A program made the translations under genes and the position numbers. From Synergistaceae bacterium (lineage in GTDB: Bacteria; Synergistota; Synergistia; Synergistales; Aminobacteriaceae), in contig WRHH01000004.1 of NCBI GenBank assembly GCA_009783355.1, positions 32,852 to 96,851 on the forward strand: 64,000 nucleotides of DNA, written 5' to 3'. The notes under the pieces were generated by a model that saw only the letters and a program-made list of their open reading frames with translations, was not told the DNA's origin and did not search any database. Shown here one piece after another: positions 14,076-56,480 of this stretch (within the stretch, counting starts at the first letter, position 1; every line of letters starts with the position of its first letter).

Positions 14076-14176
14076 AAGACTACTGGATTACCATGAAAGT
14101 AATCAAAAGGCAAAAACTAAAAGACAACTGAATTGCCGCGCCGCAAAAAGACGCGGCTCGCAAAGACGTTAATTAG
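14076..14176. repeat. Structured intergenic repeat element, copy A (81-bp core about 95% identical to 48710..48790)
   Basis: aagactactggattaccatgaaagtaatcaaaaggcaaaaactaaaagacaactgaattgccgcgccgcaaaaagacgcgg. Contains hairpins gattac/gtaatc and gccgc/gcggc. A related direct repeat ctggattatcacgaaagtaataaaaag lies at 14337. Confidence 0.7.
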
Positions 14177-23078: not shown

Positions 23079-23198
23079 GGGGCTGTAACAAAAGCTGGCG
23101 GCAGAATGCCGTCCCTACAACATATTGTGCTCACAATACCAAACAACCACTATATATTGTGGTTTGGCTAGCCAATATACTACTTTTGTTACAGCCCC
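23079..23198. mobile_element. MITE-like element copy 1 (16-bp perfect TIR GGGGCTGTAACAAAAG)
   Basis: Left end ggggctgtaacaaaag, right end cttttgttacagcccc. An internal hairpin ggcggcagaatgccg and the whole element recur, reverse-complemented, at 48479..48618. Confidence 0.75.
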
Positions 23199-48269: not shown

Positions 48270-48278
48270 AAAAATACA

Positions 48279-48326
48279 GTGGCGAGTGGCGAGAAAAGAC
48301 AAAAGACAAAAGACAAGACAAAAGAT
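48279..48326. repeat. Heptamer arrays (GTGGCGA x2, AAAAGAC x4) directly after the livF stop
   Basis: gtggcgagtggcgagaaaagacaaaagacaaaagacaagacaaaagat. Confidence 0.7.
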
Positions 48327-48345
48327 TGAGCAAGAGAAGAAAGGG

Positions 48346-48389
48346 CTTTATAGGGGAGGCATTATTCCTCCCCTATAAAGTCTTTTTTT
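48346..48389 (+). terminator. Rho-independent terminator after livF
   Basis: Hairpin ctttataggggagg-cattatt-cctcccctataaag followed by TCTTTTTTT. Confidence 0.75.
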
Positions 48390-48478
48390 ACTACATTTTT
48401 ACGAATTCATCGACGTTCAAGGCGACAATTCAAAGTTTTTAACAATGTTCTAACCGGCAACCCAATGTCTTTGGCAAC

Positions 48479-48618
48479 AGGCGGCTGTAACAAAAGTAGT
48501 ATATTAGCTAGTCGAACCACAATATATAGTGGTCAAGCGGCATAATGAACACAATATATTGTAGGGGCGGCATTCTGCCGCCAGCTTTTGTTACAGCCCC
48601 GCTTTTGTTACAGCCCCC
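48479..48618. mobile_element. MITE-like element copy 2 (inverted relative to copy 1; right TIR tandemly duplicated)
   Basis: ggctgtaacaaaag ... ggggcggcattctgccgcc ... cttttgttacagccccgcttttgttacagcccc. Reverse complement aligns with 23079..23198. Confidence 0.75.
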
Positions 48619-48709: not shown

Positions 48710-48830
48710 AAAGACTCTGGATTACCATGAAAGTAATCAAAAGGCAAAAACTAAAAGACCACTGGATTGCCGCGCCGCAAAAAGACGCGGGCGTAAAGAG
48801 CGGCTTCGCCGAGGCGCAAAGACGATTAGG
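48710..48830. repeat. Structured intergenic repeat element, copy B
   Basis: 81-bp core with 4 mismatches against 14076..14156, followed by a related cgcaaagacg(a)ttagg segment. Confidence 0.7.
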
Positions 48831-48943: not shown

Positions 48944-49933
48944 ATGGACAGTTTGCTCAAATTCGTAAAAGCTTATGTGAAATCTATGCGGCTTTATTAT
49001 GCCTTCATTACGGGCATATCCGGATGGGTGGGAGTTTCGTTTTACGAATACGTTACGCCCGTTCACTACTCCAATATACAGGTAATGCCTTCAGCAGAAA
49101 AGAAATTGATAATATTAACGTTTCTATTCATGTGTTGGGGAATTAACCAGATATTCAACGACTATATGGGGCTTGCGGAGGGCAGAATTAACGCCCCGAA
49201 CAGACCGATGGTGACGGGAGAGCTTAACGCCGCCGCCTCTTTACTTCTTTCCACTGTCCTTCTCGCTGCTGTTTCGCTCGCCACTTATTATTACCTTGAG
49301 CCGCTTGCCCTGTTTCCGTTGCTGACAGGAGTGGGGCTGAACTTCATCTATGAGCACGCAAAGGGATACGGAATACTAGGTAACATCGTCTATGGCCTGA
49401 CTATAAGCTCTTGTTCGGTGTTCGGTTTTCTGGCCTGCGGCCCTGTTGCCCACCCGCTTTTTACGAAAGAAAGAGTTTCAATACTGGTCATGATGTGGCT
49501 GCTGAACGCATTGATGACATATTTCACATACTTCAAGGACTATGAAGGCGATAAAGCTGCAGGCAAAAGAACCATCATCGTCAAATATGGCCTTGAGAAA
49601 TCCAAATTGTTCGGCGTGATTTCCTCTTTTCTGCCCTCTGTGACTTTTATCGCAATCTACATGAGTGGTTGCATCACAGTGCCTTTAACGCCAACGTTCT
49701 GGATCCTTGCAATTCTAACATTATTCCTTGAACTATGGAATGCCTGCCTCTACTACGTAAACCCGGGTGAAGAAAAAACGTCCTATTCTCTCGCGACGAA
49801 CACTCGCGCCTGTGTGTGCGGACAGACGACGTTCATAGCAATTTACGCTCCTCAGCTTGCTACGCTCCTGTTTCTTGTGAGTTACATCTTTATTGGATTC
49901 TTGTTTGACTTGCACAAGAATTCGAAAGAATAG
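48944..49933 (+). CDS. UbiA-family membrane prenyltransferase
   Basis: 329 aa, about 9 TM segments. FNDYMGLAEGRINAPNRP (a variant of the first Asp-rich motif) and KDYEGDKAAGKRT (second DxxxD). Confidence 0.6.
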   Translation: MDSLLKFVKAYVKSMRLYYAFITGISGWVGVSFYEYVTPVHYSNIQVMPSAEKKLIILTFLFMCWGINQIFNDYMGLAEGRINAPNRPMVTGELNAAASLLLSTVLLAAVSLATYYYLEPLALFPLLTGVGLNFIYEHAKGYGILGNIVYGLTISSCSVFGFLACGPVAHPLFTKERVSILVMMWLLNALMTYFTYFKDYEGDKAAGKRTIIVKYGLEKSKLFGVISSFLPSVTFIAIYMSGCITVPLTPTFWILAILTLFLELWNACLYYVNPGEEKTSYSLATNTRACVCGQTTFIAIYAPQLATLLFLVSYIFIGFLFDLHKNSKE

Positions 49934-49988
49934 AATGTACAAATTGCAATTTATGCACAGTAATGGTTGACAGCAAACAAACTTTAAA

Positions 49989-50264
49989 ATGCTATGGAGG
50001 TGTTGGTTCATGGAACAGAGAGTAATTGACGTAGTGGAAAATTGCAGGCCCAAAAGCGGCGGGAGCATTTCACTCAAGACGGATATTCAAAACGACCTCG
50101 AATTCGAGTCGCTGGATATGATAATGCTGGGAAACGAGCTGGAAGAGGAGTTTGGCGTCATTATCCGGGACGAGGATTTAAAAGGTGTCAGGACAGTGAG
50201 CGATATTATCGGAAAAATTGAAAATTTACTCAAGAACGGAGAGATTTGTTATGAAACAGTTTGA
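49989..50264 (+). CDS. Acyl carrier protein-like
   Basis: 91 aa. DLEFESLDMIMLGNELEEEFG with a phosphopantetheinyl Ser in ESLD. Confidence 0.6.
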   Translation: MLWRCWFMEQRVIDVVENCRPKSGGSISLKTDIQNDLEFESLDMIMLGNELEEEFGVIIRDEDLKGVRTVSDIIGKIENLLKNGEICYETV

Positions 50265-51390
50265 ACAGATGAAGGCTCTTATAGAGGAAATGAACTTCAA
50301 TCCATATTATAACGTGGTAAACGGTGACAATTATATTGACCTCGCATCCAACAATTACCTCGGGTTGGCTAAAGCGGAGACTGTAAAGAAGGCAGCCATG
50401 GCAGCTATTGATAAATATGGTACATCCATGTGCGGATCACCGGTGGCGAACGGTTACATCAACCTGTTTCGCGTTACTGAAAGAAGGCTGGCGGAATTTC
50501 TCGGGACGGACGACGCGCTCATTTTTCCTTCCTGTTATCAGGCAAACACGGGAATATTCACAGCGCTTGCCGGTGACGAAGATCATATTATCGTGGATAC
50601 GCGCGCACATTCCTCCATCATGCAGGGAATAAAGGGCGTCAGGTGCAAAGTTAGTCCGTTTCGGCACAATGACATGGAGCATCTGGAGAAAATACTTTCC
50701 CGTAGCGGCTCATACGCGCGTAAATTCGTCGTCACTGATTCCGTCTTTTCGACGGACGGGAGCGTCGCGCCTATAGACGCGGTTGTGGAACTGTGCCGAC
50801 GCTATGACGCAACGCCCATCGTGGACGATTCGCACGGGTTCGGCGTATTTGGCGAAACCGGACGCGGAGTTCTGGAGCATTTCGGTATCAAGGATTTCGG
50901 TGGAATTTTCACAGCCTCGCTCGCAAAAGCCTTTGCGAACAACGGAGGAGTTCTCGCAGGCAGTTTCGAGACCGTTGAATATCTGCGCCTCTGCTGCCCT
51001 CACCTCGCTTACTCAACTGCCGTGCCGCCCGCGATACTCGGCGGAATTCTGGGCGCGCTCGAAGCCATAGAAAAGGATTTCACACAGATTAGCAAGAGAA
51101 TGTGGGATTACCGGAAAAGAGTTCGCGCAAGCGTCATGGAGGCGGGAATGACTCTACTGGATGGCGCCTCGCCCATCAACGCAGTTTTCACAGGAAACCC
51201 CAGAAACACGTTGCTGCTAAGCAAGGAGCTTTATGAAGAGGGCATTCTTTCAATGGCGTTCGTCGAGCCGTCGGTACCGCAGGGCGAGTGTCTCGTGCGC
51301 CTCGTGGCAAGCGCGGGGCTTTCGGAAGCCCATATTGACAGGGCTTGCGATATTATCGAGGACTGCAAATGCGTTACTTCCTGGTCATGA
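50251..51390 (+). CDS. PLP-dependent alpha-oxoamine synthase family enzyme (serine palmitoyltransferase / BioF / KBL-like)
   Basis: DDSHGFGVFG and the PLP-lysine motif FTASLAKAF. Start at MKQFEQ, with a GGAGAG RBS. Overlaps the ACP gene. Confidence 0.7.
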   Translation: MKQFEQMKALIEEMNFNPYYNVVNGDNYIDLASNNYLGLAKAETVKKAAMAAIDKYGTSMCGSPVANGYINLFRVTERRLAEFLGTDDALIFPSCYQANTGIFTALAGDEDHIIVDTRAHSSIMQGIKGVRCKVSPFRHNDMEHLEKILSRSGSYARKFVVTDSVFSTDGSVAPIDAVVELCRRYDATPIVDDSHGFGVFGETGRGVLEHFGIKDFGGIFTASLAKAFANNGGVLAGSFETVEYLRLCCPHLAYSTAVPPAILGGILGALEAIEKDFTQISKRMWDYRKRVRASVMEAGMTLLDGASPINAVFTGNPRNTLLLSKELYEEGILSMAFVEPSVPQGECLVRLVASAGLSEAHIDRACDIIEDCKCVTSWS

Positions 51391-51782
51391 ACCCCGCCTC
51401 ACGCGGTGGGAAGAGCGCGGGCTTCTTTGAGCTGATTCACAAGGACTCAATTTATATCACGGGGAAAATCGGCGCCGGTAACTTGCAGGCGCTGAAAATT
51501 AAAAAGCGCTTCACGCTGAGAAATGCCGAAGCGGAGGTCGTGCGTCAACACGCCACATCCTGCATCGACACCAGCGACGGAGCCTGGAACGCCGTTAACC
51601 TTATAGCGGCGCAGAGCAAAGTCGGGTACGAACTGCACGACCTGCCCTACGACGCTACGGGGCTCCGTATCACAAATACCTTGGGCTGGCCGAAAGAGTT
51701 GCTGTTTTTTGAGAAGGCGGCGAATTTGAGCTACTATTCACTTCGCCGCAAGAACTCCCGTTTCGCAAAATCGGCATCATAA
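51369..51782 (+). CDS. Short lipid-kinase-like (DAGK catalytic-type) protein, possibly truncated
   Basis: YFLVMNPASRGGKS resembles the DAGK_cat N-terminus, and TSDGAWNAV resembles GGDGT. Only about 137 aa. Confidence 0.3.
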   Translation: MRYFLVMNPASRGGKSAGFFELIHKDSIYITGKIGAGNLQALKIKKRFTLRNAEAEVVRQHATSCIDTSDGAWNAVNLIAAQSKVGYELHDLPYDATGLRITNTLGWPKELLFFEKAANLSYYSLRRKNSRFAKSAS

Positions 51783-51946
51783 CGAAAAGTTCAAAGACCT
51801 TGGACGGCAAGGATATATCGTCGTTCGACCTGAGCGCGCGGCAATTTGAGAACGTCCAGCATTATGTCGAGGCGGTGAAAGAAAAATGCGCTTCACTAAT
51901 GCTAATGTAACAACGAATCAACATAAGTTCAAGGAGCTGAAATGGA

Positions 51947-52237
51947 ATGAATGACAGATACAATCTTGATGAACCGGCTGCGAAGAAGCCGGAACCCGGT
52001 CAAGTTAATGAAATAAGACAAAATGGGTGTGGGTGTTTTATAGCTATAGTTATATTTATATTCATGTGGGTTATGGCTTTTTTTTATGATCACCGGACGG
52101 GATTTAGGACTTTAAGCCTCTTATCTGAAATTGCAAAATTTGCGGGGAGCCTTATAGGCGCGCGATGCGATGCAACCGGCGTTGGGTTCCCCGGTTTGTT
52201 TTTGCTGCCACTGCTTTTCATTCGAAATCGAAAATAA
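51947..52237 (+). CDS. Small hypothetical membrane protein
   Basis: 96 aa, one or two TM segments. Confidence 0.35.
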   Translation: MNDRYNLDEPAAKKPEPGQVNEIRQNGCGCFIAIVIFIFMWVMAFFYDHRTGFRTLSLLSEIAKFAGSLIGARCDATGVGFPGLFLLPLLFIRNRK

Positions 52238-52331
52238 AGGAGTTGAATAAATTGAATAATGGAGACGATTTTACGGAAAATGCGCCGAAGGAACATTTAA
52301 ATATTCAAACTATTGATTTCATCGCGCGAGG

Positions 52332-53324
52332 ATGTGTAAAACAATGAGCAAAATTTTAATAACCGGCGGGACGGGGTTTATTGGCAGCCATATCGTCGAA
52401 TACTTCCGCGAGATGGGCGAGGATATCCGTACCATTACGCGGCAGGACGCCGATCTGCGCGACGCGGACAGCGTATTGAGAGCTATAAATGGCGCCGACT
52501 GCGTCATTCATAACGCGGCTTTGGCTGCGGATTGGGGACGATATGGCGATTTTTATGACAACAACGTAACGGGAACGCTGAACGTGCTGAAGGCTTGCGT
52601 CAGGAACGGCGTCGGGCATGTGATAGTTGCAAGCTCGTGCAGCGTATACGGTGAGGAGGACTGCTCTTCGGTCAAGGACGAAAACAGCCATCATAATTCC
52701 CACTACACGTATTTTATGGATAGAGTATTCCCGTGTGCAATGAATTACTATCGCGATACGAAGCGTATCGCGAAGGAAAAGGCTATAGAGTTTTCACGTG
52801 AGCACAAGCTACCACTCGCTCTCATTGAACCGGTCTGGGTGTACGGCGAACGCGAGTTTCACACAGGCTTCTACGATTACCTCAAGGCAGCGCGGGACGG
52901 GCTTCCTTTCTGCATGGGGAGCAGGAAGAACAAATTTCACGTCGTCTACGCGCGCGACCTGGCGAGAGCGTATTACCTCGCGTATAAAGCAAAGGCGGAA
53001 GGAAGCTTCATCATAGGAAACCGTGAGGTCGCCGACATGGAAGAGATTTTTTCGCTCTTTTGCAGCGAGGCGGGAGTCGTGAAACCGCGCCGTGCGCCAA
53101 AGGCGCTGATGTACCCCATAGGGTTCGTTCTCGAACTTTTATGGACGGTTTTCGGGGCAAAAAAGCCGCCCTTTATGACGAGAGGCAGGGTCAATATTTT
53201 TTACGACAGCGTCCTATATGGCGTCCAAAAAGCCAAGGACGTTTTGGGGTTCGAGAGCGAGTACACGCTCGCGCAGGGAATAAAAAACACGGTAAGCTGG
53301 TATAAAAAGGAGGGTTACCTATGA
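52332..53324 (+). CDS. NAD-dependent epimerase/dehydratase (extended SDR)
   Basis: GGTGFIGSH Rossmann motif. YRDTK catalytic YxxxK. Confidence 0.75.
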   Translation: MCKTMSKILITGGTGFIGSHIVEYFREMGEDIRTITRQDADLRDADSVLRAINGADCVIHNAALAADWGRYGDFYDNNVTGTLNVLKACVRNGVGHVIVASSCSVYGEEDCSSVKDENSHHNSHYTYFMDRVFPCAMNYYRDTKRIAKEKAIEFSREHKLPLALIEPVWVYGEREFHTGFYDYLKAARDGLPFCMGSRKNKFHVVYARDLARAYYLAYKAKAEGSFIIGNREVADMEEIFSLFCSEAGVVKPRRAPKALMYPIGFVLELLWTVFGAKKPPFMTRGRVNIFYDSVLYGVQKAKDVLGFESEYTLAQGIKNTVSWYKKEGYL

Positions 53325-54601
53325 ATATGAGCGCAAGTATTTTAATGAAACTCAAAGTATTTACCCATTATCTGCCGCTTCTCCTCAAGGGCGAAATGTC
53401 ATTCAGGCGTTTTGTTGCGTTTATGCGTAGGATGTCGTTTTTCCTCTCGAAAATGGGTCATAATAAATTTGTCAAATTTAACGGAGGCACGCGGTTCGGT
53501 TTCTATATCCCGACTTACCCGTCGAGGGCTTTTTGCACGACGACGGATAAATTCAGGACTTTCGAAGGTAAATTTCCATGTATCAACGTTCTCCTGTCCG
53601 TTACGTCGGCGTGTATGCACAAATGCGAGTATTGCTATCAGAGGCGGGACGCAGGCGCGGACATGGATCTTGACTTGCTTATAGCAACGGCGCGGAAACT
53701 TCAGGATATGGGTATAGCGCTTTTCAGTATTGAGGGCGGCGAGCCGTTTCTGAGGTACGACAGGCTGAAAGCTTTGTGCAACGCTATCGATGACCGTTCG
53801 GAGATTTGGGTCAACTCAAACGGCTGGGGCATGACCGTAGAGAGATTAAAAGAGCTCCGGATAGCAGCTGTGACTTTTTCTCTGCACCATCCCGAGCCCG
53901 AGGCTTTTAACAAGTTCATGGGGAACGAGCAGGCATGGGCCCACATGGAACAAGGCATCAAAGCGTGCCATGAAGCGGGCGTCCCCGTGACGTTCAACAC
54001 CTGTCTGATGAAAGAGGCGTTCTACGACGGAACTTTCGAGAAGGTCATGGATTACGCAAAAGAACAGGGAGTCCTGATGATACAGTTGATAAAACCAAAA
54101 CCTGCGGGCGGCTGGCTCTTAAATGACGAACTCCTCTTTTCGGAGGAGGACATGAAGGCTGCAAAAGTGAAGATCCACATGTACAATAAGGACAAAAAGT
54201 ACTCGGCGTTCCCCGCTATCAGCGCGCAAATAATCGAAGAGCAGCCGGACGTGTTTGGCTGCACTGCGGGCGGTACGGACAGGTTTTATATTAACGCAAA
54301 GGGCGACGTCCAGCCGTGCGAGTTTCTGAACATCTCGTTCGGCAATATCGCAGACGAAAAATTCGAGGACATCTACGACAGGATGAGAGCATGTTTTGAA
54401 ACTCCGGGAGAACGCATCCTGTGCGAAGAGGCGGCAAAAAAGATAGCAGCGCTATACAAACAGCATAATTTGAACTCCCTGCCGCTTCCGCCCGAACTCT
54501 CGAAGCAGGTCTACGAAGAATGGGACAGAGGCGCGGCAACGGAGTTGTATAGAATAACAGTTGCGAGTGGCGAGTTGCGAGTTGCGAGTGAAAGACCTTA
54601 A
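53321..54601 (+). CDS. Radical SAM protein with SPASM-like C-terminal domain
   Basis: CMHKCEYC (CxxxCxxC). C-terminal Cys cluster GCTAGGTDRFYINAKGDVQPCEF. The last 13 codons (VASGELRVASERP) are encoded by the heptamer array. Confidence 0.75.
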   Translation: MNMSASILMKLKVFTHYLPLLLKGEMSFRRFVAFMRRMSFFLSKMGHNKFVKFNGGTRFGFYIPTYPSRAFCTTTDKFRTFEGKFPCINVLLSVTSACMHKCEYCYQRRDAGADMDLDLLIATARKLQDMGIALFSIEGGEPFLRYDRLKALCNAIDDRSEIWVNSNGWGMTVERLKELRIAAVTFSLHHPEPEAFNKFMGNEQAWAHMEQGIKACHEAGVPVTFNTCLMKEAFYDGTFEKVMDYAKEQGVLMIQLIKPKPAGGWLLNDELLFSEEDMKAAKVKIHMYNKDKKYSAFPAISAQIIEEQPDVFGCTAGGTDRFYINAKGDVQPCEFLNISFGNIADEKFEDIYDRMRACFETPGERILCEEAAKKIAALYKQHNLNSLPLPPELSKQVYEEWDRGAATELYRITVASGELRVASERP

Positions 54602-54686
54602 AAACAGTTGCGAGTTGCGAGTGGCGAGTGAAAGGCAAAAGACAGAGGCAAGAGGCTTCCATTGAACATTGTGCATTGAACATTGA
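54559..54686. repeat. Heptamer arrays (GTTGCGA/GTGGCGA x about 8; CATTGAA x4) with a GAAAGGCAAAAGA box
   Basis: gttgcgagtggcgagttgcgagttgcgagtgaaagacc...gttgcgagttgcgagtggcgagtgaaaggcaaaagacagagg...cattgaacattgtgcattgaacattgaa. Confidence 0.7.
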
Positions 54687-55236: not shown

Positions 55237-55971
55237 ATGGAGGTGGAAATTATGTACACTGCTAAGAGAAAAATAATCATGGCAATATTTTGCACGGCGC
55301 TGCTCGTTGCCTTCGGGGCGGGTTTTGCGGGTCGAAGTTCGGCAGCGGTAGGAGACGTTATCAAACTCGGCGGATTTGATTGGCGCGTGCTCGAAGTGAA
55401 GGATGGAAACGCCCTCATCATAAGCGACAAAATATTGTCGAAGGGCGCGTACAATATACCGGATAAAGGTGTGTTGTACGATTCATTGGGTTCAGTCTGG
55501 CAGGATACCCCCGTTAAATGGGAAGAATGTACTTTGCGGCAATATCTGAACGGGCAGTTTTATGATTCGACTTTCTCAAATGAAGAAAAGGGACGAATAG
55601 TCGAGACGACGATAGTAAACAATGATAACCCATGGTTCGGTATGGCGGGCGGTAACGACACCACGGACAAAGTGTTTTTGTTGAGCCTTGAGGAAGTAGT
55701 GTTATATTTCGGCGACAGCGGAGAATTGGGGAACCGGCCAAAAGACGCTGACACTATAAACGACAGCTTCAATGAGAAGAGGATTGCAGAAACGCTGGAC
55801 GGCAATGCTTGCAGATGGCTTCTTAGGTCTCCCGGCCTCTTTCACCGCATGTGCGACAGCAACCACGTCTATGCCGGTTGTGTCGCTGTGAACGGATATC
55901 TCTCCGTAATAGGCGAATATGTCCATAATGAATACAGCGGGATTCGCCCCGCGATGTGGATAAAACAATAA
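55237..55971 (+). CDS. Secreted paralog of the BlaR1-like sensor domain (DUF6273-like extracytoplasmic domain)
   Basis: Signal peptide. About 60% identity to residues 340-548 of the 56480 gene. Shared blocks include GDVIKLGGFDWRVL, SNEEKGRIVET, KVFLLS, WLLRSPG and RPAMW. Confidence 0.65.
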   Translation: MEVEIMYTAKRKIIMAIFCTALLVAFGAGFAGRSSAAVGDVIKLGGFDWRVLEVKDGNALIISDKILSKGAYNIPDKGVLYDSLGSVWQDTPVKWEECTLRQYLNGQFYDSTFSNEEKGRIVETTIVNNDNPWFGMAGGNDTTDKVFLLSLEEVVLYFGDSGELGNRPKDADTINDSFNEKRIAETLDGNACRWLLRSPGLFHRMCDSNHVYAGCVAVNGYLSVIGEYVHNEYSGIRPAMWIKQ

Positions 55972-56108: not shown

Positions 56109-56480
56109 ATGAGGAAACTGCCGGATGCGGAGTTTGACATCATGAAAGTGGTTTGGGCAAACGAACCGCCAATCACTACATCCGAAATAATGAAGCAACT
56201 GGGAAATGAAAAGGAGTGGAAGATACAGACCATCGTTTCGCTGATGCTCCGACTGGTTGAAAGGGGCTTTTTGCGCTCGGAAAAACACGGCAAGGAACGC
56301 ACGTATTTTCCGTTGGTGGGCAAGGAGGAATATCTCAAATTTGAGACGGGTAATTTCATCAGGAACTTCCACAATAATTCGTTCCTCAATCTCGTCACAA
56401 CCTTGTATGACGGCGAAACGCTCTGCGAGGAAGATATCAGCGAATTATTAAAATGGGCTAAAGAACGGGGAGAGAAATAA
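56109..56480 (+). CDS. blaI: BlaI/MecI/CopY-family transcriptional repressor
   Basis: 123 aa. LPDAEFDIMKVVWANEPPITTSEIMKQL winged-helix N-terminus. Confidence 0.8.
   Translation: MRKLPDAEFDIMKVVWANEPPITTSEIMKQLGNEKEWKIQTIVSLMLRLVERGFLRSEKHGKERTYFPLVGKEEYLKFETGNFIRNFHNNSFLNLVTTLYDGETLCEEDISELLKWAKERGEK

Follow-up and report, generated by a model that had tools for sequence, protein, structure and literature searches.

A decayed operon copy in a Synergistaceae genome and its conserved nine-gene counterparts in anaerobic bacteria, a candidate route to an amino-lipid

Both thiamin biosynthesis (ThiD/ThiL/ThiE; hydroxymethylpyrimidine diphosphate, HMP-PP) and methanofuran biosynthesis (MfnE/MfnF; furan-methanol diphosphate) proceed by a two-step phosphorylation and a subsequent substitution, and the 2-alkylpyrrole module of undecylprodigiosin is made up of RedP, RedQ, RedR, RedL and RedK. 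Bacterial sphingolipid genes, e.g. those of Caulobacter, comprise Spt (serine palmitoyltransferase), an acyl carrier protein (ACP), CerR and the ceramide synthase bCerS, and in none of 33 Cloacimonadota metagenome-assembled genomes (MAGs) was bCerS or CerR found near the Spt-like gene (PMC11334938). A GGGPS-DGGGPS pair has been reported in Cloacimonetes (PMC7852524). Here, we analysed a locus in which an ACP gene is followed by a gene for an alpha-oxoamine synthase (AONS), located at 48944-54601 of a 64,000-nucleotide stretch of the genome of a Synergistaceae bacterium (contig WRHH01000004.1, positions 32,852 to 96,851 of the forward strand; the whole stretch is called the window below). While an earlier, sequence-only reading had presented this locus as a candidate cluster of six genes for a lipid, we find a copy of a longer operon that has lost three of eight core genes (an Old Yellow Enzyme-type reductase, OYE; a lipid kinase; a ThiL-like enzyme) and in which a fourth (the UbiA-family prenyltransferase) lacks a catalytic residue. 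The explanation we favour, at a confidence slightly better than even, is a joint one: at the window locus, a conserved operon survives in decayed form, and the intact operon works by the route to a phosphorylated, prenylated amino-lipid proposed below.

Open reading frames (ORFs) were listed for 44-60 kb of the 64-kb window and their proteins scanned against Pfam and NCBIfam. Five intact genes were recovered, all on the + strand: a full-length UbiA-family membrane prenyltransferase resembling DGGGPS (48944-49933; PF01040, 87.6 bits vs. a gathering score of 34.2), a dedicated ACP (50010-50264, with the mechanical ORF starting at 49989; PP-binding, 31.6 bits; serine within ESLD), the AONS (50251-51390, mechanical ORF start 50218; Aminotran_1_2, 148.5 bits; pyridoxal phosphate-binding lysine within SLAK), an extended short-chain dehydrogenase/reductase (SDR) of the NAD-dependent epimerase/3-beta-HSD type (52344-53324; Epimerase, 113.6 bits; GxxGxxG and YxxxK motifs) and a radical S-adenosylmethionine (radical SAM) protein with a twitch-type or partial SPASM region (53321-54601; PF04055, 76.6 bits; SPASM, 29.8 bits). 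ACP and AONS overlap by 14 bp, AONS and the ORF after it by 4 bp, and SDR and radical SAM likewise by 4 bp (ATGA). The dedicated ACP directly in front of an AONS-fold enzyme with its catalytic lysine, on which the sequence-only reading had built its case, is therefore real. Of its six co-directional genes, these five hold, most of them overlapping a neighbour; the sixth, at 51345-51782, is a pseudogene, and the locus consists of five intact genes and two gene relics, placed after UbiA and AONS, instead of six genes.

The remnants were located by tblastn of the proteins of an intact relative (L001) against the window. UbiA, SDR and radical SAM were matched over their full lengths (76%, 71% and 76% identity, respectively), the AONS over residues 8-383 (74%) and the ACP over residues 1-70 of 75 (57%). 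From the OYE, only residues 350-381 found a counterpart, at 49933-50028 with 59% identity. This relic, located between UbiA and ACP, corresponds to the last 30 codons of the reductase gene (49933-50025, + strand), translates into ECTNCNLCTVMVDSKQTLKCYGG and contains the C-terminal Cys motif of the OYE family (CxxCxxC...C). The lipid kinase (DAGK_cat), a protein of 290-324 aa in relatives (L001-L007), is represented by its codons 1-19 only (51387-51443, +; 79% identity). In frame with it, residues 154-242 of the ThiL-like protein (AIRS/PurM family, ~306-339 aa in relatives) start at 51444, and residues 242-306 (74% identity) continue in a second frame to 51901; this second relic thus covers residues ~154-306 (51444-51910, +), with a frameshift near 51710 and an identity to L001 of 72-74%. 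The ORF at 51345-51782, formerly read as lipid-kinase-like, yielded no Pfam match and only 23.2 bits with ThiL. It contains a DAGK-like N-terminus (MNPASRGGKS) and, after it, the ThiL-like IDTSDG, the PurM-family C-terminus (GEFELLFT...) being out of frame. It is a pseudogene, in which 19 DAGK codons run in frame into the latter half of a ThiL-like gene, followed by a frameshift. The cluster is indeed centred on ACP and AONS with SDR, UbiA, radical SAM and a DAGK-type kinase fragment, as had been proposed, the fragment being the 19-codon relic.

At the place where the AIRS and SDR genes overlap in relatives, the window harbors an insert of ~430 bp (51910-52330). We looked for a relic of a ketoacyl-ACP synthase (KAS) in it and found none, and a homologue of the insert was absent from every fetched locus except L088, a metagenome contig of the same species. 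A 96-aa ORF within the insert (51947-52237, +), preceded by a Shine-Dalgarno sequence and encoding one hydrophobic segment, lies outside the ancestral operon; it matches no family, and its only homologue among the fetched loci is again in L088. The reductase, lipid kinase and ThiL-like genes were thus lost through two deletions and one frameshift, and the insert took the place of the AIRS/SDR junction.

In relatives, the genes form an operon in the order UbiA, OYE (Oxidored_FMN, Fe-S), ACP, AONS, DAGK_cat, ThiL-like AIRS, FabF-like KAS, SDR and radical SAM. A protein search with the window AONS returned one near-identical match, six at 73-80% and hundreds at ~45-57% identity, and the contigs carrying AONS relatives all showed the longer cluster, including that of the cultured Desulfosporosinus orientis DSM 765 (L006), to which the five window genes are 36-56% identical with order and strand kept. 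Besides, aligned radical SAM sequences were used to search one genome per GTDB species, giving 80 loci, to which metagenome loci were added; synteny was determined by tblastn. Carriers within the Bacillota comprise many Desulfosporosinus, Petroclostridium sp. X23, Acetivibrio, Anaerovorax, Halobacteroidaceae and Heliobacteriaceae, and within the Bacteroidota Prolixibacteraceae, Mangrovibacterium lignilyticum (in whose copy KAS was not detected) and Mariniphaga. Further carriers belong to the Cloacimonadota, Fibrobacterota/Chitinispirillaceae, Sumerlaeota, Verrucomicrobiota, Desulfobacterales, Oligoflexia, Spirochaetales and Mcinerneyibacteriota, and include Zoogloeaceae MAGs from termite gut; protein matches extend the list to Synergistaceae, Omnitrophota, Aureabacteria, Delongbacteria and Marinimicrobia (the last as labelled). 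The operon is thus spread over about a dozen phyla of anaerobic bacteria and widespread in anoxic habitats. Among cultured strains, intact copies are present, for example, in D. orientis DSM 765 (CP003108.1, ~2,174,148-2,184,036), D. lacus, D. hippei and Petroclostridium sp. X23.

Gene content was counted over the 55 loci that are uncut by contig ends. All nine genes were present in 40 of them; KAS alone was missing from five, and in another five the small ACP alone went undetected. DAGK and OYE were each missing once (1/55), one locus is the deletion variant L008, and two showed smaller partial patterns. The median gap between every adjacent pair of operon genes is at most 12.5 bp, and radical SAM proteins from different phyla share ~50% identity or more. 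With the same order in >80 loci of many phyla, the sharing of gene order is far beyond chance. The genome context places the genes singled out by the sequence-only reading, in fixed order, within a nine-gene operon of many phyla. Bacteroidota loci (e.g. L056, L059, L063, L076) show a circular permutation, AIRS-KAS-SDR-rSAM-UbiA-OYE-ACP-AONS-DAGK (rSAM, radical SAM), in which the adjacencies are otherwise kept; relative to the order in Bacillota and Cloacimonadota, the cut falls between DAGK and AIRS.

When flanking ORFs of 84 loci were clustered, an XRE-type regulator recurred in the flanks of 19 Bacillota loci, and no other gene was recurrent there, transporters, prenyl synthases, glycosyltransferases, bCerS and GGGPS included. 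The operon is hence a self-contained module whose genomic surroundings vary, a pattern pointing to horizontal spread among anaerobes; the radical SAM gene had no match in the plasmid database PLSDB. Two separate deletion variants were seen, for both of which an assembly error is possible: L008 (Bacillota MAG UR.bin154) keeps a helix-turn-helix (HTH) gene, UbiA, OYE, a truncated SDR and radical SAM, while L087 (a Desulfosporosinus MAG) keeps HTH, fragments of UbiA and AONS, ACP and radical SAM. These variants suggest that the operon decays recurrently.

That the losses in the window are real and fixed in its lineage is indicated by the independent contig L088 (sample ERZ27257320), which has the same architecture and is 99.6% identical over 8.7 kb with zero gaps; the few single-nucleotide differences cluster near the contig end. 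By exact sequence, the window itself falls within a Synergistaceae MAG (locus tags FWF87_022xx, 101-kb contig). A further lesion concerns UbiA. Throughout the operon family, the first Asp-rich motif reads NDxxGxxED, compared with the canonical NDxxDxxxD, and the second (KDYEGD in the window) is conserved. The window protein carries D80G in the first motif (NDYMGLAEG), at a position occupied by Asp in 118 of 119 family members and by Gly in this protein only; the closest UbiA relative (L089, 82% identity) retains this residue, and the OYE gene adjoining it is intact. The first Asp-rich motif of UbiA enzymes binds the Mg-diphosphate of the donor, and the activity of the window UbiA is therefore probably impaired. 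Since the reductase and both kinases are lost and the metal-binding Asp of UbiA is gone, the full product cannot be made in the window lineage, and the idea of a working six-gene pathway at this locus is not supported. At most, the remaining ACP, AONS, SDR and radical SAM protein could yield an unphosphorylated amino-alcohol.

It might be argued that the five surviving genes constitute a working, streamlined pathway to a simpler aminolipid, i.e. the earlier proposal minus its kinase. All five ORFs are full length and have their catalytic motifs, their deviations at invariant columns are few (SDR 0/41, AONS 2/60, radical SAM 5/87, with three of the latter five common to L002), their branch lengths (Kimura) resemble and only slightly exceed those of relatives with intact operons, and two strains share the architecture. 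These features speak against decay, and a reduced functional pathway may exist; signals of relaxed selection, as judged by branch lengths and invariant columns, are weak apart from D80G. However, the pattern UbiA-ACP-AONS-SDR-radical SAM is absent from all 55 uncut loci, the almost invariant UbiA Asp is gone, and the 430-bp insert interrupts the operon between AONS and SDR. In addition, the ThiL-like relic is as conserved as intact genes, so that the deletions must be recent, and the intactness of the remaining ORFs consequently tells little either way about retained function. We consider a streamlined pathway distinctly unlikely and continue with the decayed copy as our preferred reading. The window ACP likewise deviates from its family, by D33E (ESLD vs. 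DSLD).

For the intact operon, the steps of a pathway can be sketched from the chemistry of the enzyme families. KAS and ACP would deliver a dedicated acyl (or 3-oxoacyl) thioester, and the AONS would join this thioester to a small amino acid in a decarboxylative condensation, the product being a long-chain alpha-amino ketone. The SDR would convert the ketone into an amino-alcohol, i.e. a sphingoid-like base, and the lipid kinase followed by the ThiL-like enzyme would phosphorylate a hydroxyl group, first to a monophosphate and perhaps on to a diphosphate. The DGGGPS-like UbiA might then form a C-O or C-N/C-C bond between the phospho-lipid and an isoprenoid chain, while tailoring of the product would fall to the OYE/Fe-S reductase together with the radical SAM protein, the latter being membrane-associated in this scheme. 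In sum, the intact operon probably builds a phosphorylated, prenylated amino-lipid.

The AONS was classified by the cut-offs of curated hidden Markov models and by scores against solved structures. It reached 310.9 bits with BioF (TIGR00858; trusted cut-off 426.45), 284 with Kbl (460), 265.5, 246.5 and 198.6 with the Spt models NF047600 (640), NF047599 (500) and NF047603 (670), 223.4 with CqsA (428) and 201 with ALAS (339), and no member of the nine-gene operon attains a curated NCBIfam cut-off. Among solved structures, it comes closest to the Thermus AONS/KBL of broad specificity (220 bits), followed by KBL (204 bits) and the Sphingobacterium Spt (198 bits). By these scores, the operon AONS appears to form a separate AONS clade, about equally near KBL and Spt. 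One might suspect a housekeeping BioF or Kbl that happens to lie beside unrelated genes, given that these two models rank first in NCBIfam and that the Thermus enzyme is the closest structure. Yet the scores stay far under both cut-offs, neither bioA, bioD and bioB nor tdh is encoded near the window AONS, the related loci are likewise free of bio genes, and across phyla the gene keeps its place among the nine, with stop and start codons that overlap, making this explanation very improbable. The outcome that the sequence-only reading had itself named as refuting it, an AONS grouping firmly with BioF in a biotin-operon context, is thus not what we found. Full-text searches turned up no paper on this gene combination (PMC11334938 and PMC7852524 deal with Spt and DGGGPS in other settings), in keeping with the statement that no characterised pathway is matched, and we regard the operon family as uncharacterised and as a new variant of AONS-based lipid biosynthesis. 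The notion of a novel lipid cluster accordingly holds for the gene family, but the window copy itself is a relic. The term 'sphingolipid', on the other hand, could not be established: the Spt cut-offs are missed, KBL/AONS and Spt score nearly equal, and ceramide synthase is lacking.

The UbiA protein has its closest solved and curated relative in archaeal DGGGPS (PDB 6m31), yet falls below the DGGGPS equivalog cut-offs (54.5 vs. 353 and 49.7 vs. 296 bits). The DAGK of intact operons is closest to DgkB/YegS lipid kinases, and the AIRS protein to thiamine-phosphate kinase ThiL, with the D. orientis protein scoring 124.4 bits against TIGR01379, i.e. below the cut-off of 184.15. KAS retains the Cys-His-His triad and is therefore an elongating condensing enzyme. 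The OYE of intact operons resembles YqjM and FadH; it has a conserved CxxCxxCxxxC...C motif near its C-terminus and is devoid of the FAD/NADPH domain of FadH. The same enzymes could be assembled differently. DAGK and the ThiL-like kinase may diphosphorylate a lipid alcohol made by the pathway itself, and UbiA would then ionise this non-isoprenoid diphosphate and alkylate an acceptor. In one version, following RedL/RedK logic, KAS would supply 3-oxoacyl-ACP, AONS would add serine, and the resulting 2-amino-3,5-diketone would cyclise to a pyrrolinone, which OYE and SDR would reduce to a 2-hydroxymethyl-5-alkylpyrrole whose diphosphate would be a strong electrophile. Several observations fit such a self-made donor: the DAGK and ThiL-like genes adjoin and usually overlap (median gap -8 bp), the chemistry of ThiL is the conversion of a monophosphate to a diphosphate, the donor-binding motif is altered in all operon UbiA members, most operons have an elongating KAS without reductive partners, and an ene-reductase suits an enaminone or enone intermediate. 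Against it stand the wholly inferential nature of the scheme, the five of 55 uncut operons without KAS, the want of any identifiable acceptor, and the substrates for which DAGK_cat kinases are known, which are diacylglycerol, ceramide and sphingosine-type molecules rather than heteroaryl-methanols. We grade this alternative as serious but, taken on its own, rather unlikely.

Among the remaining enzymes, the SDR finds its closest curated models in OleD (2-alkyl-3-oxoalkanoate reductase) and HpnA. The radical SAM protein has the CX3CX2C cluster motif (C98/C102/C105) and matches the SPASM domain PF13186 with 29.8 vs. 21.5 bits. It does not have the full seven-Cys SPASM motif (CX2CX5CX3C): downstream of the core, only C314 and C333 (within a CX13GX4C half-SPASM motif) and C368 are invariant, and the protein is therefore twitch-like. 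In addition, it possesses a conserved basic amphipathic N-terminal extension of ~85 aa. Its confident AlphaFold model (pLDDT, the predicted local distance difference test, 89.7) has SkfB, SuiB, PqqE, BlsE, anSME, viperin, MoaA and GDGT-MAS as structure neighbours. As the closest of these, SkfB and SuiB, are peptide maturases, a maturation system for a ribosomally synthesized and post-translationally modified peptide (RiPP) was weighed. However, the likeness is a generic SPASM/twitch one (TM ~0.5), with BlsE, viperin and MoaA nearly as high; the operon has no conserved small ORF or precursor gene; an RRE-like domain could not be assigned in the model; and the other operon genes all encode lipid or small-molecule enzymes. 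We thus give a RiPP system hardly any credence.

Returning to the phosphorylated, prenylated amino-lipid as the favoured product of the intact operon, a number of points weigh against it. The AONS misses the Spt cut-offs and scores as high with KBL/AONS as with Spt, and without a bCerS N-acyltransferase, which is neither in the operon nor recurrent in the flanks of the 84 loci, this is not a ceramide pathway. The ThiL-like enzyme, OYE and radical SAM have no step in the simplest sphingoid-phosphate scheme; OYE enzymes normally require an activated C=C bond. The modelled radical SAM structure matches generic SPASM/twitch neighbours only. More far-reaching, the intact operon might stand for an unrecognised lipid class of anaerobes, in which either the archaeal-type, DGGGPS-like UbiA attaches an isoprenoid by an ether bond to a sphingoid-like backbone bearing phosphate, or a diphosphorylated fatty-acid/amino-acid alcohol serves as non-isoprenoid alkyl donor. 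We hold this broader proposition to be unlikely. If it were true, Spt-like and DGGGPS-like markers in metagenomes would partly report this operon pathway.

The surroundings of the window copy show features of their own. Heptamer arrays of the type (AGT[GT]GCG)n are located at 48278-48291, 54559-54586 and 54606-54626, each trailed by AAAGACA-type runs; they flank the cluster on both sides and occur nowhere else in the 64 kb of the window. The left flanking repeat, (AGTGGCG)n followed by AAAGACA runs (48278-48325, +), lies directly past the livF stop codon; the right one (54559-54650, +) comprises two (AGTTGCG/AGTGGCG)n arrays followed by AAAGGCAAAAGACAGAGGCAAGAGG and provides the radical SAM ORF with its final 16 codons. 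Arrays of this kind are absent from the relatives L001 and L002, and the cassette may have been inserted or recombined at boundaries marked by them. A terminator-like hairpin with a T-run (48337-48389, +) closes the upstream liv ABC-transporter operon; the only Rfam hit in 42-60 kb, mir-365 at 48328-48395 (32 bits, E = 0.003, under the gathering score), is this very hairpin and was dismissed as spurious. The 670-bp intergenic region upstream of UbiA contains two dispersed repeat elements, 48717-48790 (97% identical to 14083-14156) and 48483-48600 (88% identical to 23079-23196, inverted), whose other copies are likewise intergenic and which could be elements like miniature inverted-repeat transposable elements (MITE) or repetitive extragenic palindromes (REP), or regulatory. 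The Rfam scan of 42-60 kb revealed no riboswitch, and a scan for promoters and terminators gave counts no different from shuffled sequence and was uninformative on transcription units. Downstream of the cluster, judged from translations only, an ORF for a BlaI-like repressor (56109-56480) precedes that of a 548-aa BlaR1/M56-like membrane protein (to 58126), whose C-terminal ~200 aa are paralogous to a separate 244-aa ORF (55237-55971), with KLGG(F/I)DWRVL...RPAMW in common.

The window relic has led to a strikingly conserved operon, and intact copies in cultured strains make its product directly testable. The operon also bears on how genes are read in other bacteria. It is a candidate explanation and context for the Cloacimonadota Spt-like genes that have neither bCerS nor CerR nearby, and surveys that infer sphingolipid producers from Spt-like genes may be misled by the operon AONS. 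Similarly, the UbiA gene of the operon is auto-annotated at the Joint Genome Institute (JGI) as geranylgeranylglycerol-phosphate geranylgeranyltransferase, a label that could mislead arguments on archaeal-type lipids in bacteria.

Compared with the bacterial sphingolipid genes (PMC11334938), the operon shares the ACP followed by an AONS-family enzyme and an extended SDR as possible 3-keto reductase, and in its intact form it has a DAGK_cat kinase, from a family that includes ceramide and sphingosine kinases. It differs in that its AONS fails three Spt cut-offs and bCerS is lacking, and its UbiA, OYE/Fe-S reductase, ThiL-like kinase, KAS and radical SAM are part of no described sphingolipid pathway. 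Archaeal DGGGPS is the closest relative of the UbiA protein, although the operon protein scores far below the cut-off and has NDxxGxxED as motif 1; a phosphorylated long-chain base would look similar to the DGGGPS acceptor, which is a one-chain lipid with a phosphate and a free hydroxyl. Unlike the GGGPS-DGGGPS pair of Cloacimonetes (PMC7852524), the operon has no GGGPS/PcrB gene nearby. As in the thiamin and methanofuran routes, a kinase and a monophosphate kinase stand beside a diphosphate-using enzyme, whereas the enzyme families are others except for the ThiL-like one and the operon substrate would be a lipid. With the undecylprodigiosin module, finally, the operon has KAS, ACP, an AONS-type condensation and an NAD(P)H reductase in common; there, RedL is a multidomain polyketide synthase, and that aerobic, actinobacterial pathway makes use of neither UbiA nor a kinase nor a radical SAM enzyme.

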